NCBI GenBank assembly: GCA_963662275.1
Contig: OY759316.1
Location: 2,848,001-2,912,000, forward strand
Direction: 5' to 3'
Source of the DNA: Candidatus Cloacimonadales bacterium
Lineage (GTDB): Bacteria > Cloacimonadota > Cloacimonadia > Cloacimonadales > DAONDQ01
DNA: 64,000 bases
This document shows positions 1,723 through 37,477 of this stretch, one piece after another. The notes beneath the pieces were generated by a model. The model made no database searches. It saw only the letters and a list, made by a program, of their open reading frames with translations, and had not been told where the DNA came from. Every line of letters begins with the position of its first letter. Position 1 is the stretch's first letter. Position numbers and translations under genes: made by a program.

Positions 1723-4700
1723 ATGAATCCGTTGAAGAAAATTCTGATGCTCATGTTAATATTGAGCACAGTTGCGTCTATCATGGCAACCACCGTCACA
1801 ATTGGGACGGGGACATCATCTCAATATTATCCGATAGACAGGCTTTACAACTACAGTGCAGCGGAAATTGTCTATCTGCAGAGTGAGATTGGCATGTCAG
1901 GAAGTATTAATCGTCTTGCTTTTCAAAAAGTGTCTGGCACTGATATTAATCCTATCCTCGATGTTTCAATCTATATGAAGCAAACTACTGCCACAACCCT
2001 AGCTACGGGTGATTACTCCACTGCTGATTATACATTAGTCTACACTGGACCATTCACCAATACTGCAACAACCGGATGGATGGAAGTAACTCTCACAACA
2101 CCATACACATATTCTAATACTCAGAGTTTGTCCATTCTTGTGGTGAAAGGATTTCAGCAATGGACATCCTCTTGTCCTTATTGGGGCTATACGGCAACTA
2201 CAGATAGCAAATTTAGATATGATTATGATGATGATGCTGCTCCAACAACGCTAACACAATCTCTTAATCGACCGAATATCCAGTTGAACATCGTACCTTT
2301 GGAAGGTCCTGCAGTATTTGCTATGAGTCATAGCGCGATCAATTTCGGAACTTGCTTCATTAATGTGACTACATCAGCAACGACTGTCACTGTTTCCAAT
2401 AATGGTGGAACCCCGATGCATATCACTTCAGCCATACTTGGTGGTGCAAACGCAAGTGTTTTCACTAAAACTGATACTAACACTTATCCGGTTACACTTG
2501 CTGCCGGCGGAAGTATGAGTTTTACCGTGTCTTTCCTGCCACTTCTCGCACAACAATATAATGCTACCGTAACAGTCACTGATGATCTCGCACGTACACC
2601 TCATATACTCACTTTGACAGGTTTAGGTTTTGATAACAACATCACAACTTTCCCCTATGTCAACAGTTTCGATGAAACTGCTTTTCCACCGATTGGGTGG
2701 ACAAATCAAAGAATCGTAGGTACCTATACACCCGGTATCTGGGCAGGTTCAGCAACTGGTGTTAATCCTCCCTGCACACCGCACAGCGGTACGACAATGG
2801 CGTATTATAACAGTTACTCAATATCCGCAAACGTCCACACTGTTCTCTCAACGCCACCATTAACGCTTCCCGGAAATAACTACCGAGTTTCTTTCTGGAT
2901 GTATCGTGATATAAGTACTGCGTATAACACACCCAAATATAGCGATGAAGGTATCAGTGCCTGGTTTGGTACATCTCCGACTGATACTACTTTAGCTGTT
3001 AACTTAGGTTTTATACCACGCGATGCTGTTTTTGCACCTGTTGTAGCAGCCAATGGCTGGTACAAATATGGATTTAATTTTCCTGCAAATTCAGCAGGAG
3101 CTGCTAAATATGTGATTTTAAAAGTTAAAAGTCAATTTGGTAACAACATATTCCTGGATGATGTAACCATCGAATTGCAGCCAACAGGCGTACCCTTGCC
3201 TGCAATGGTTTCATCACCAGCAAATAATGTTATTGATCAGTTCCCAACAATCAGCTTGAATTGGCTGCCTGATGGAACTGGTCCGGCAACCTTGGGATAC
3301 CGTTTATCCTTCGGAACAGACAATCCACCCACAAACGTACTGAATAATAGCGATGTTGCTCTAGTTGCTACTTATACACCAACCTTGCAATTTGGTACAA
3401 CGTACTATTGGAAGGTTGTACCTTATAATGCTCTTGGTAATGCAACCGATTGTCCGATTTGGACATTCACAACTATGGCAGACCCAACTGTGACTACTTT
3501 CCCTTATCTTCAGAACTTTGATAGCGTCACAATTCCTGCCATCCCTGTGGGTTGGTCAAAAATGATAGTATCATCCAGTACAGCGGCTATTACCACGAGT
3601 ACATCTACTCCTAACTCTGCACCGAATAATGTTTTAATAAGCAATTCCGGTGATGCAAATGCAAATGTGGTTCTTGTTTCACCTCCAACCCCTAATGTGG
3701 GTTTGACCCGAATTCGTTTCTGGGCAAAAGGTGCAGCAAATTACGTACTATTAGTGGGAACAGTTACAAATCCCGCAGATCCAACATCATTCTCGGAATT
3801 CCAGACAATTAATCTAACTGCCACATATGCCGAGTACTCGGTTTCTTTCGCCGGCTATGCAGGTCAAGCTCATTATATTGGTTTTAAACATGGACTTGGC
3901 ACAGCATATCAAAGCATCTACCTTGATGACTTCTCTTGGCTCTTGATTCCTACAGGTCCTCAGGTGGAAGTGAATGTGACTAATCTTGCTTACGGTGATA
4001 TTTATAATAATTCCACACCTGTTCGAGTTGTTCAGATAAATAATTCAGGTTTAGCAGATCTCAGCTTTACTGTTGCTACATCTGGACAAACAGTAACAAC
4101 GAACTTAACAGGTACTCAAACGCTTACACCTGGTTCTTCCGTGTCTTGTAATGTGACACTTCACCCGATAGCTGAAGGTGCCTTAACAGGTTCAATTACA
4201 ATCAACTCGAATGATCCACTGACACCGGCTCTTCTAATACCTCTGTCTGCAACAGTGCTTCCTGCACTTGCTCCCGGTTTGATAGAAGTAGGGAACGGGT
4301 CTCTTGTTGAAATAAGTCTTCCTGTCGAACCATATTACAATCATAGTTTTTCTCAAACCATTTATTTGCAAACTGAATTGAATCAGCCAAATAGCAGTAT
4401 CAATTCAATTTTCTATAAATTCAATGGTGCAAGTGCATGGTCTGATACAATGCTAGTATATTTGGGACAAACAACTCGTTCTTCTTTCACAAGCACAACT
4501 GATTATGTTCCAGCAACTGAATTAACACTCGTTTATTCTGGATTACTGACTGTCACGGCTGAGGCAGGTTGGGTTGAAATTCCTCTTGATACCCCTTATA
4601 CTTATGACAACGTCTCTAATCTGGTTGTATGTATCGACAAAGATACACCTTATCATCCAAATGCGAATGATTTCTACTGCGCTGCTGTAACAACAAATCG

Positions 4701-15404: not shown

Positions 15405-15535
15405 TGGCTATGCTTCTGCTGGAACGCTTAATTCATTAGGCTGATTTCGAAGTTCGATGTGCGAAGTACGAAGTTCGAAGTTGCAGATGCATAGCCGGTT
15501 GAAAACGGCGTTCCAACCGCGTAAATGCGGAGCTA
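15405..15535 (+). repeat. Uninterrupted copy of a dispersed palindromic intergenic repeat; empty-site homolog of the IS110 insertion
   Basis: ggaacgcttaattcattaggctgatttcgaagttcg...gcagatgcatagccggttgaaaacggcgttcc...gcgtaaatgcggagc aligns in reverse complement to 35021-35153 plus 36895-36917. Confidence 0.85.
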
Positions 15536-15540
15536 CGGCG

Positions 15541-35020: not shown

Positions 35021-35153
35021 GCTCCGCATTTACGCTGTTGGGTGCTGCTGACTTCAGCCGGTTTGGAACGCTGTTTTCTATTGGAACGTTGTTTTCAAAT
35101 GGCTATGCATCTGAAACTTCGAACTTCGTACTTCGTATATCGCACTTCGAAAT
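35021..35153 (-). repeat. Left part of the dispersed repeat split by IS110; the remainder is at 36895-36917
   Basis: ttggaacgttgttttcaaatggctatgcatctgaaacttcgaacttcgtacttcgtatatcgcacttcgaaat matches the reverse complement of 15444-15516. Confidence 0.85.
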
Positions 35154-35238
35154 AGCTTACTATAGGAAGGTTAGAAAATTAAGGTAGAAAAACCTCCCTC
35201 GTTGATATACATAGATCAAATCAACAAAGGAGGTAACA

Positions 35239-36516
35239 ATGATTACCACATCAAAATCTAACCCAAAGAGGTTTTTTGTCAACTCAGAAATGATGCTTGT
35301 TGGCATTGATATCAGCAAGCACAAACACAGTGTGTATTTTTGTGATTTTACAGGTGAACGGAAGCGTAAGCCATTTTTTATTACAAACAATCATGATGGT
35401 TTTCAGTATCTGCTAAAAGAAGCAGAACAGCAAAAGCGTTTGTGGAATCTGAACGAGATTGTATTTGGAATGGAACCAACAGGTTCATATGTAAAGCCAC
35501 TCCAGTACTTCTTGGAAGAACGCTGCTATCAAATCCAAAGCATCAACCCATTACACACTAAAAGATGGAAGGATATTGAAGATAATCATCCATCCAAGAA
35601 TGATTTGAAAGACAGTATTATCATTACCTCTCTGTTAAGAATGGGCAAGAGCATCCATCATCGGAGACCTGAAGGTGTTTTCGCGGAGTTGAACAACTAT
35701 GCAGCTTATTATCACCAGTTAATCACAGATATTCGCAGGCAGAGGAACTATCTGGAAGCCTCTTATGCCTGTTACTTTCCTGAATTGAGTAACTTTTTCA
35801 AATTTAACAGTACGGGAGTAATGTATATCATGGAGTGTTTTCCTCTTCCTCAGGATATCGTAAATGCAGGATATGAGAATTTTCTGAAGATTATGAAAAC
35901 AAAAAGCAAAGGGTGCATAGCTACAGAGAAGCTTCACAGTTTATATCAGGTATCTCTAACAAGTATTGGCATGAGTCAGGGAGCGGATAGTGCGAGAGTG
36001 GTCATAAATGCGATCTATGAGGATATCAGCTATAAACAATACCATCTCAAACAAATCAAAACAGCAATCATGACATGTGTAGATAAAATCAGTTATGGAT
36101 CGTTATTGGTGACAATACCTGGTTTGAGTAAAGTATCAGTGGGGTTAATTCTGGCGGAGACTGGAGATATCAATCAATATGGTCGATATCAGGATTTAGT
36201 CAAACTTGCCGGATTGAGTTTAAAACACAATCAATCAGGAGAATACCATGGGCAATATCATATCTCTAAGGTAGGAAGAGTAAGGTTGCGAAGGATCTTG
36301 TATATGCTTACTCTGGAAATGATTATAAACAATCAATTAATCAATCAGATATATAATTATCAAGTAAAAAAGCGAGGTAATAACAAGGTCAAAACTATCG
36401 TTTCTTTGAGCAGTAAATTACTGGGAATCATGTACTCAATGGTTAAATATGAAAGGTCGTTTGATCCTGAACAGCGAAAGCTATATGCAGGTTATTTAAC
36501 TGAAAATAATCAGTGA
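35239..36516 (+). CDS. IS110-family transposase/recombinase
   Basis: DEDD residues in VGIDISK, GMEPTG and KNDLKDS; C-terminal TIPG..., LAGL....QSG....HISKVG..RLR; AAGGAGG Shine-Dalgarno. Confidence 0.95.
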   Translation: MITTSKSNPKRFFVNSEMMLVGIDISKHKHSVYFCDFTGERKRKPFFITNNHDGFQYLLKEAEQQKRLWNLNEIVFGMEPTGSYVKPLQYFLEERCYQIQSINPLHTKRWKDIEDNHPSKNDLKDSIIITSLLRMGKSIHHRRPEGVFAELNNYAAYYHQLITDIRRQRNYLEASYACYFPELSNFFKFNSTGVMYIMECFPLPQDIVNAGYENFLKIMKTKSKGCIATEKLHSLYQVSLTSIGMSQGADSARVVINAIYEDISYKQYHLKQIKTAIMTCVDKISYGSLLVTIPGLSKVSVGLILAETGDINQYGRYQDLVKLAGLSLKHNQSGEYHGQYHISKVGRVRLRRILYMLTLEMIINNQLINQIYNYQVKKRGNNKVKTIVSLSSKLLGIMYSMVKYERSFDPEQRKLYAGYLTENNQ

Positions 36517-36559
36517 GCCAAGAAAAAAAAGTAGTCAAAAAATAATGGAGGTGTTTAGA

Positions 36560-36732
36560 TTGGTTCACTCGCCGGATGATGTAGTCATTAGGCACTAAGG
36601 CTTGTTTACAAGACCTTCTACCATAGCTCATTATAGCACACCGGCGGGTATTATCTCAGATAGGATAAAGTAAGAATAGGATACCATCAGAAGGTAATCC
36701 AGTATATCAGCAAGATCGGGATGTAGAACCAA
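36560..36732 (+). ncRNA. Predicted bridge/seek RNA of the IS110 element
   Basis: Manual fold: basal stem TTGGTTC/GAACCAA closes two stem-internal loop-hairpin arms; loops contain CATTAGGC, ATAGC, AGTAAG and TATATCAGC matching the target and donor junctions. Confidence 0.75.
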
Positions 36733-36791
36733 GAGAGCTTTGATAAGTAATATTCGATTTAATCATAGAATTCAGATCGAAAATCAGCGTC

Positions 36792-36846
36792 TCTGGAACC
36801 CTGCAATGACGCTTCGGTACCCTACGCGTCATTGCAGGGTTCCAGA
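36792..36846. repeat. Perfect 21-bp inverted repeat inside the IS110 right end
   Basis: TCTGGAACCCTGCAATGACGC - 13 nt loop - GCGTCATTGCAGGGTTCCAGA. Confidence 0.9.
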
Positions 36847-37006
36847 AAGCCAAGTACTATGAATATATTATAATATATAACTATCTAACTATATCAGCCT
36901 AATAAATAAAGCGTTCCGGCCTTTGAAAAGAGTGATCCAAGTCCCTAATCTGTTAAAATAGCTCTTCTCTGCAATCCCTAAAGTCTACTAGCTATACTCT
37001 ATAAGC

Positions 37007-37232: not shown

Positions 37233-37298
37233 GAAACAGGAATGAAACAGGTATGAAACAGGTATGAAACAGGATTGAAACAGGTATGAAATAGGATT
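37233..37298 (+). repeat. 6 x 11-mer tandem array
   Basis: gaaacaggaat gaaacaggtat gaaacaggtat gaaacaggatt gaaacaggtat gaaataggatt. Confidence 0.9.
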
Positions 37299-37477
37299 GA
37301 ACTTGGTACAATACATGTGGACTGAACGCTGTTTCCAAACGGCTATACAATATTTACACTTGACTTTGGGCAATTGTTGGAACATTATTTTCAAACGGTT
37401 ATGCTGGTTTCACTGGCTAGTACTTCAAATACCAGCATTATCCTGTTATTTTTAAAATATTATAGAAGCATCTATAT

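Follow-up and report, generated by a model that had tools for sequence, protein, structure and literature searches.

An IS110-family element inside a REP-like repeat

The window analyzed here, a 64-kb stretch of DNA (C1:2848001-2912000 of the source genome, G000, which is one contig of 4.38 Mb), carries an insertion sequence (IS) of the IS110 family that we named IS-A; a relative of this element in a second genome, G040, was named IS-B. IS-A is 1742 bp long, occupies positions 35154-36895 on the + strand, and is inserted inside a repeat that resembles repetitive extragenic palindromic (REP) sequences. The features at the locus, and the related repeat elsewhere in the window, are as follows.

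35021 to 35153, + strand: left half of the split REP-like repeat, with two REP-like left arms followed by CTTCGNA heptads, ending ..CGAAAT.
35154 to 36895, + strand: the IS element IS-A, counted with its left AGC (35154-35156) and terminating in ...CTATATC; its ends are fixed by empty-site paralogs.
35154 to 35238, + strand: left end of the element, 85 bp, containing a ribosome-binding site and the putative right-donor half (AGC-TTACTATAG), the latter recognized by the complementarity of the right donor guide to CTTACT.
35239 to 36516, + strand: transposase/recombinase gene, 425 aa, with the putative DEDD residues D24, E79, D122, and D125 and the SG motif at S333-G334.
36896 to 36898, + strand: second AGC, in which the 3 nt common to donor and target come from the target, recognized from empty paralogs that have a single AGC without a preceding C.
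36899 to 36917, + strand: right half of the split repeat, i.e., the right arm after AGC (CTAATAAATAAAGCGTTCC), identified by sequence comparison with paralogs.
15421 to 15540, - strand: uninterrupted paralog of the repeat, reading ..CGAAATCAGCCTAATG.., with one extra C relative to the other family members.

A first-pass annotation of the window had proposed that an IS110 element splits a dispersed REP-like repeat and that a homolog of the empty site lies in the same window. The two halves of the repeat do match one uninterrupted paralog: in the right part, 21 of the 23 positions are the same as in the reverse complement of 15421-15443, and the left part (35081-35153) is 89% identical to 15444-15516 over 73 nt, with the match continuing upstream with gaps. 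At up to 3 mismatches, the 23-mer was found at two places only within the window, namely the split repeat and the paralog. The homolog on the - strand is therefore a real paralog, but it is one base off exactly at the junction. The composite repeat consists of a REP-like left arm (GGAACGCTGTTTTCAAACGGCTATGC), a variable centre, and a right arm that is partly complementary to the left arm; genome-wide, the left arm occurs 58 times at up to 5 mismatches, and the right arm follows it within 110 nt in 11 of these places. In the split repeat, the left arm measures 26-28 nt, resembles REP units, and contains a small hairpin of its own (GCTGTTT-TC-AAACGGC), and at C1:1345267-1345513 of G000 eight left-arm copies stand head to tail with a 31-nt period. 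A tandem run of about seven copies of an 11-nt unit (GAAACAGGTAT; repeat family D11) lies at 37233-37309 of the window, 340 nt downstream of IS-A.

The family assignment made in the first pass was confirmed at the protein level. The transposase has an N-terminal DEDD (RuvC-like) domain (Pfam PF01548, DEDD_Tnp_IS110, E 4e-26, residues 21-180) and a C-terminal domain matching Pfam PF02371 (Transposase_20, E 9e-16), and it scores 177.2 bits against a cut-off of 140 with the NCBIfam model NF033542, 'IS110 family RNA-guided transposase'. It is also distantly similar to the solved recombinases ISCro4 (E 6e-12) and IS621 (E 1.3e-11). D24, E79, D122, D125, and Q332-S333-G334 are invariant in a four-sequence alignment of relatives, and the first four residues probably form the DEDD tetrad, judging from motif position. 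The SG motif, the site of the catalytic serine in the family, reads GLSLKHNQSG, with L where the consensus G--P----SG, as given in an excerpt of PMC11187229, has P.

Empty paralogs define the ends of IS-A

Six copies of IS-A are present in the genome. All six are 100% identical, with the same ends and the same junctions. The left flank ends in AT in five copies and in AC in one (copy 2), followed by AGCTTACTATAGG, and the right junction reads ..CTATATC-AGC followed by CTAA (four copies), CTGT (one), or TTAA (one). At the window copy (copy 1), the left flank terminates in ...CACTTCGAAAT at 35153 and the right flank begins with CAGCCTAATAAATAAAGCGTTCC at 36895. AGC is present at both ends of every copy, and the empty paralogs hold one AGC.

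These junctions can be read in two registers, with an AGC overlap or with an AT core. The 100-nt flanks of each copy were compared with the whole genome, and those matches that extend to the junction were inspected. For copy 3, which lies in a tandem array, four further full units are 100% identical to the left flank over 100 nt and a fifth, partial unit is identical across the junction-proximal 26 nt; all of the paralogous units continue ..GATCAT/AGCCTGTAGTGG (the slash marks the junction), without a C ahead of AGC. Copy 2 lies in a 110-bp tandem array; of the 17 paralogous units listed for it, 15 have ..ACAC/AGCCTAAAGG. The empty sites of both copies thus contain a single AGC with no C preceding it, so that the C at 36895 is to be assigned to the element, with AGC as the stretch common to element and target. 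In the repeat family of the window copy, the right arm gave 20 matches at up to 3 mismatches, including the two split copies; TAGCC stands in seven uninterrupted members and TAGCT, TAGCA, or AAGCC in three more, and the in-window paralog is the single member with an extra C at the junction (TCAGCC; it reads ..AAATCAGCC). Related but not identical units reach the junction of copy 4, and the flank search of the genome found no paralogs reaching the junctions of copies 5 and 6.

The AGC register, which the first-pass annotation had considered to fit the RNA guides, was thus borne out by the empty paralogs of three insertion sites as well as by the guides described below. In this register, the non-coding ends measure 85 bp on the left and 379 bp on the right (36517-36895; 382 bp if AGC is counted), in good agreement with the early estimates of about 85 and 380 bp. 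Insertion of IS-A is site-specific and oriented and occurs without real duplication, with a short core common to donor and target, as is typical of IS110-type elements. The core dinucleotide itself is probably GC, because the left and right target guides overlap on GC and, by analogy, the core of IS621 sits in every pairing.

A predicted two-module RNA downstream of the transposase gene

The right end of IS-A folds far better than shuffled sequence (z = -6.2), and the consensus fold of IS-A and IS-B contains two modules, each built from closing stem, internal loop, and apical hairpin. We therefore predict a two-loop RNA of about 160 nt, similar to bridge RNAs and seekRNAs, at 36568-36723 (+), downstream of the gene. 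On the + strand, G:U occurs at five predicted stem pairs in at least one of the two elements; therefore, the RNA would be read on the transposase strand. The features of the right end are as follows.

36568 to 36648, + strand: predicted target-binding module (module 1), with closing stem 36568-75 / 36641-48, internal loop, and apical hairpin 36597-36617; the scaffold is conserved in IS-B.
36586 to 36593, + strand: putative right target guide (CATTAGGC), the reverse complement of the core plus the right flank of the top strand (GCCTAATG), on the 5' side of module 1.
36621 to 36627, + strand: putative left target guide (CCATAGC), in the same sense as the left flank plus core and pairing with the bottom strand, on the 3' side of module 1.
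36652 to 36723, + strand: predicted donor-binding module (module 2), with closing stem, internal loop, and apical hairpin 36679-36700 in the consensus fold.
36669 to 36674, + strand: putative right donor guide (AGTAAG), complementary to CTTACT at the left terminus, on the 5' side of module 2.
36703 to 36711, + strand: putative left donor guide (TATATCAGC), the same sequence as the terminal 6 nt of the element and the AGC behind them (36890-36898), on the 3' side of module 2.
36791 to 36846, + strand: perfect 21-bp palindromic hairpin, whose apical part is conserved between IS-A and IS-B.

When G:U or G:T wobble is allowed, contiguous pairing is seen at all six insertion sites, over 5-7 nt with the left target guide and 5-8 nt with the right one. 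The two target guides overlap exactly on GC, each site is read over 9-11 bp, and together the guides would specify approximately 9-11 bp around ATA-GC-CTAAT. The other loop matches the predicted circle junction (TATATCA-GC-TTACT); its left guide, TATATCAGC (9 nt), is the longest sense repeat within the right end. The non-coding end is thus predicted to encode an RNA with loops complementary to both target and donor, as expected of an IS110-family element.

Guides and targets change together in the relative IS-B

IS-B is present in seven copies in G040, a genome of the same order, and its transposase is 52% identical to that of IS-A. The two elements share the same architecture, the CTATATC-AGC-TT termini, the RNA scaffold, and the 21-bp palindrome with its conserved apex. 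IS-B ends in CTATATC-AGC on the right and begins with AGC-TTGCTATATT on the left, and it is located at (T)GT-AGC-ATAG(G), inside a REP-like hairpin unit. G040 contains eight uninterrupted GTAGCATAG-N9-CTGTTG hairpin units, compared with none for the reversed control pattern, and the empty site has a single AGC.

Outside the guides, the RNAs of IS-A and IS-B agree at 93 of 116 alignment columns (80%), and in the guide columns at 25 of 39 (64%). The right target guide of IS-B (TCCTATGT) differs from that of IS-A at 5 of 8 positions, and every change fits the right flank of IS-B, (A/G)CATAGGA. In the left target guide (ATGTAGC), an A-to-G change fits the GTAGC that ends six of the seven left flanks; in the right donor guide (GCAAG), a U-to-C change fits the CTTGC that replaces CTTACT. 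The left donor guide of IS-B is ATATCAGC. This co-change of guides with target is the strongest evidence that the loops act as guides, and the pair amounts to a small natural reprogramming experiment in which the scaffold is shared and the guides and target differ.

The palindrome lies about 50 nt from the right end of IS-A and has its IS-B counterpart at 3016-3070 of locus L018. In its stem, 10 of the 23 predicted pairs are altered on both sides and no pair is broken; the apex, TGACGCT(T/C)CGGTACCCT(A/C)CGCGTCA, is kept, and G:U pairs are absent. The palindrome is not followed by a T-run terminator.

Three IS-B copies depart from the common junctions. In two of the seven (L018 and L020), the right junction reads ..TATATC-AAC-ATAG and the left one GT-AGC-TT, and a nearby inverted REP unit within L020 has GTAAC, a pattern that points to an AC-core insertion site, the first core base being tolerated through wobble. 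A parallel would be the relaxed first core base of IS621 (excerpt of PMC11208158). The third copy (L014) has a deviant left junction, ..TTAGGTT/GTGCTATATT instead of ..GTAGC/TTGCTATATT, which may be a decayed or rearranged end. In addition, contigs from the sequencing runs X1, X3, X4, and X5 follow IS-A up to the point where its right target guide begins (loose ends at 36585 and 36413) and then go on with the guide sequence of IS-B; therefore, an IS-B-like element co-occurs in those samples.

Insertion sites of the six copies

Two of the six copies (the window copy and the one at C1:188264) share one insertion position in the right arm of the composite repeat, one lies in the 110-bp array, two are in a different, two-hairpin repeat, and one has no paralog at the junction. 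All six insertions are in non-coding DNA, where no frame exceeds 87 aa. The exact 9-mer ATAGCCTAA has 26 further occurrences in the genome, compared with about 52 expected from composition; 18 of these 26 empty sites lie in open frames of at least 150 aa, as do 85% of 500 random positions. The simplest reason for the confinement to non-coding DNA is selection against gene disruption. Predicted pairing with the in-window paralog covers 9 nt for the right guide and, with one wobble included, 4 nt for the left guide; by this measure the paralog is a good target that is still empty.

The arrays around copies 2 and 3 were also inspected. Copy 2 lies in a long tandem array (C1:2347890-2354363 of G000) whose unit length, about 110 bp, is not divisible by 3. 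The weak target site ..CCACAC-AGC-CTAAAGGAGTTGCCAC.. recurs in each unit, and only one of them is occupied. Upstream of copy 3, C1:1702344-1703248 is a tandem array of 173-187-bp units with flanks 100% identical over 100 nt; in every unit, two hairpins flank the IS target. In related single units at other places, the first hairpin has compensating changes (ATCTC/GAGAT, ACATC/GATGT, and ATCCT/AGGAT), which hints at a structured repeat family. Also upstream of copy 3, C1:1701849-1701894 (L003 101-146, - strand) matches the Rfam family Acido-Lenti-1 at 36.8 bits (gathering score 37, E 4e-05), the only near-threshold Rfam match across the six copy loci.

Distribution of relatives

Close relatives of IS-A were seldom found. 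A search of 5.8 billion proteins, which requires shared 5-residue words and can miss relatives, gave 18 matches, two of them at 49-56% identity and 16 at 33% or less. Among 232 genomes of the phylum, only G040 and one 31% match in G179 were recovered at E 1e-60 or better. A search of genome contigs with the single protein yielded no close relatives, and a search with an alignment yielded the G040 copies only; two scans of metagenome contigs gave none and then one locus at 25% identity, and a search of viral contigs found no relatives. The nearest plasmid-borne relatives are IS110-family genes of Firmicutes at approximately 27-33% identity, and a full-text literature search for 'Cloacimon' together with 'IS110' returned nothing related. 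The clade thus looks rare.

Distant IS110-family relatives (28-31% identity) were seen on short contigs of G017, G057, and G179 (loci L015, L016, and L028, respectively). In these, the long non-coding region is also downstream, and the elements start with (A)AGC(T/A)T.... The downstream regions of L016 and L028 contain 6- and 7-nt antisense matches to positions 4-10 of the left terminus; these candidate guides sit where a right donor guide would be expected.

Overall reading and alternative explanations

The AT register would make the element 1741 bp long (AGCTTAC...CTATAT) with an AT core and CAGCCTAA entirely target sequence, and it would yield the circle junction ..AACTATAT-AGCTTAC.. (..CTATAT-AGCTTAC..). 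It gives an exact junction with the in-window paralog (..GAAAT/CAGCCTAATG), and five of the six left flanks terminate in AT; yet the paralogs of copies 2 and 3, at up to 100% identity over 100 nt, lack a C before AGC, copy 1's own repeat family has TAGCC in seven members, and the left flank of copy 2 ends in AC. The donor guide includes TATATCAGC, hence the C is part of the element, and IS-B has the same CTATATC-AGC terminus and empty sites that read GT-AGC-ATAG. This register had been derived from the in-window paralog, set against 10 other intact AGC-type members without the extra C, and since that paralog differs by one base exactly at the junction, we regard the AT reading as an artefact, give it almost no credence, and reject it: empty paralogs, IS-B empty sites, and donor guide all place the C in the element. 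The extra C of the paralog was also considered as an excision scar, an idea that arose because the last base of the element is C; agreement at one base is expected by chance in 1 of 4 cases, a guide-directed excision would be precise, and the idea found no support. With the AGC register in place, the overall reading is that IS-A is an active IS110-family insertion sequence that picks its landing sites via its own non-coding RNA. Several observations weigh against this. The shuffle test is moderately significant (the target score was reached in 35 of 2000 shuffles and the donor score in 55 of 2000), the covariation is based on two elements only, and genome, metagenome, and viral contig searches added no other close relatives with DNA. 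In both elements, pairing of the right donor guide takes in just one core base, the second (C); pairing is short at some used sites, the right guide at copy 3 forming four Watson-Crick pairs plus one wobble; and the 26 exact ATAGCCTAA sites stay empty. A scan for a promoter or terminator of the RNA found nothing above shuffle expectation and no terminator, and four contig sets from sequencing runs contained no joint, circle-junction, or empty-site contig for the window copy, the single contig continuing past 35156 being the paralog at C1:1218119. Should the guide-like matches be due to chance, the fold of the right end would have another role (e.g., terminator or mRNA stability) and the protein would read DNA itself. 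The single-element shuffle test (p ~0.02-0.03) leaves some room for this, and in Rfam the right end has no family at or near threshold, with only hairpin-driven microRNA models far below their gathering scores. Against chance, the guide positions of IS-B have altered in accord with its different target and terminus on a conserved scaffold, and the architecture and guide order are as described in excerpts on published seekRNA and bridge RNA systems (PMC11187229, PMC11208160). Chance matches are thus very unlikely, and RNA-guided site choice by an active IS-A is highly probable.

As for what the RNA-guided element recognizes, the first-pass annotation had taken the REP-like repeat family to be its safe-harbour target. 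The window copy and the copy at C1:188264 do occupy the same position of the same composite repeat, and four of the eight empty non-coding ATAGCCTAA sites belong to the family; however, only these two copies are in it, the other four are in sequence unrelated to the family beyond about 10 bp, and about 10 intact members are still empty. A dedicated role of the family as such, through its sequence or its fold, is accordingly improbable, and the proposal appears too narrow: the common factor of the sites is probably the guide-specified 9-11 bp, in all cases in non-coding DNA. A DNA hairpin beside the guide-matched site could nevertheless act as a second specificity determinant, for which ISPpu10 offers a precedent (excerpt of bioRxiv 10.64898/2026.03.19.712850). 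Such gating by sequence plus structure would account for the occupation of non-coding palindromic repeats only and for the difference between the six occupied sites, all non-coding, and the empty 9-mer sites and random positions, most of which lie in long frames; the targets of IS-B are hairpin units, and by eye the right flank of copies 2, 3, and 4 is the 5' arm of a hairpin, which folding predicts for copies 3 and 4. Crude folding of 93-nt windows did not separate the groups (occupied -6.8, empty 9-mer -6.1, and random -6.6 kcal/mol), selection against gene disruption explains the non-coding bias without a gate, and the sample is six sites only. We consider a hairpin gate doubtful, and the guide-specified motif remains the preferred determinant of the target.

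Proposed route of transposition

By the precedent of the families named above, the RNA would be expressed and processed, and the element would leave as a circle with the junction ..CTATATC-AGC-TTACTATAG.. (..AACTATATC-AGC-TTACTATAGG..). The guides of module 1 would recognize the target, and those of module 2, by the same principle, the joined ends of the element itself, AGUAAG pairing with CTTACT and UAUAUCAGC with TATATCAGC. A complex of recombinase and RNA may then bring circle junction and target together by pairing, with strand exchange at the common GC by analogy with IS621, for which excerpts of PMC11208160 and PMC11208158 describe a core included in every pairing and a top strand cut 3' of the core. 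Insertion would involve no true duplication, AGC merely showing at both junctions. The window copy would have landed in the right arm of the REP-like composite repeat, whose original empty site would read ..CGAAAT-AGC-CTAATAAA.., with the extra C absent, and the other copies wherever the guide-matched motif occurred in non-coding DNA.

The locus offers a clean natural example of what is probably RNA-guided transposition outside the usual model phyla, with occupied sites, empty paralogs, putative guides, and donor ends together in one genome. For annotation, it defines the exact ends of six copies and accounts for unrelated intergenic repeats that are broken at the same short motif. It also illustrates that a nearby empty-site homolog can mislead by one base, so that the register is better fixed from several paralogs together with the guides.

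Comparison with known systems

The comparisons below follow excerpts of the cited papers. Bridge RNAs have two loops, with the core included in each pairing (PMC11208160). The bridge-RNA elements of the IS621/IS110 group (Durrant 2024, PMC11208160; Hiraizumi 2024, PMC11208158) resemble IS-A in having a DEDD plus serine recombinase and a two-module RNA, predicted in IS-A, in which target and donor each have a loop. In both, the bottom strand is read by the left guide and the top strand by the right guide, with an overlap of the two on a 2-nt core; insertion creates no true target duplication, and a short inverted repeat (CTATA / TATAG in IS-A) flanks the programmable donor. As in IS-B, where it is G or A, the first core base of IS621 varies and the second is fixed. 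Unlike in IS-A, whose predicted RNA lies downstream of the gene in the 379-nt right end, the RNA of this group is in the left end, and the order of the guides within each loop is reversed in IS-A. The core of IS621 is CT, compared with the probable GC of IS-A, and IS621-type proteins have 326-341 aa, compared with 425 aa, and are only distantly similar (E about 1e-11).

The seekRNA elements of the IS1111 group (ISEc11, ISPa11, and ISKpn4; Siddiquee 2024, PMC11187229) resemble IS-A, with its 85-bp left and 379-bp right ends, in that the transposase gene is followed by a long non-coding region. They also share the guide order, with the complement of the top strand first (5') and that of the bottom strand second, and the overlap of both matches in the target: in IS-A, the right target guide (36586-93) precedes the left one (36621-27), and the donor loop has the same order. 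Their transposases are shorter (330-350 aa, PMC11187229, vs. 425 aa), and they have subterminal inverted repeats of 7-17 bp (PMC11187229); by eye, only CTATA / TATAG (5 bp) is perfect in IS-A, and a longer match needs a 4-nt gap in AT-rich sequence, which makes it weak either way. Many IS1111 members have a multi-loop donor (Durrant et al., PMC11208160), whereas the predicted donor loop of IS-A is a simple internal loop.

ISPpu9 and ISPpu10 of Pseudomonas putida (PMC12288879; bioRxiv 10.64898/2026.03.19.712850) are like IS-A in having multiple copies in REP sequence, and in ISPpu9 the transposase is followed by a small RNA gene (PMC12288879), as is predicted for IS-A. They differ in that the ISPpu elements are in one repeat family and the six copies of IS-A are spread over at least four kinds of sequence; the stem-loop requirement of ISPpu10 found no support for IS-A in the crude folding test.

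Taken together, the IS-A clade mixes characters of two groups. Its long recombinase (425 aa, within the 395-455 aa of the IS110 group in the narrow sense) and its minimal, 5-bp subterminal repeat are of the IS110 type, which has short or no such repeats; the downstream RNA and the guide order are of the IS1111 type, and an upstream RNA with the bottom-strand guide first, the other mark of the narrow IS110 group, is replaced by downstream guides in the opposite order. It is tempting, if rather speculative, to regard this rare clade (IS-A, IS-B, and the two metagenome proteins at 49-56% identity) as a natural intermediate between the IS110 and IS1111 groups that carries an extra cis element, the palindrome, needed for the RNA 3' end or for assembly of the recombination complex. 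A downstream non-coding region is described for some IS110-family members (PMC11187229), and therefore the arrangement of IS-A is not new in kind; IS-A adds a well-resolved member to the RNA-guided IS110 family, an already-known kind of mobile element.

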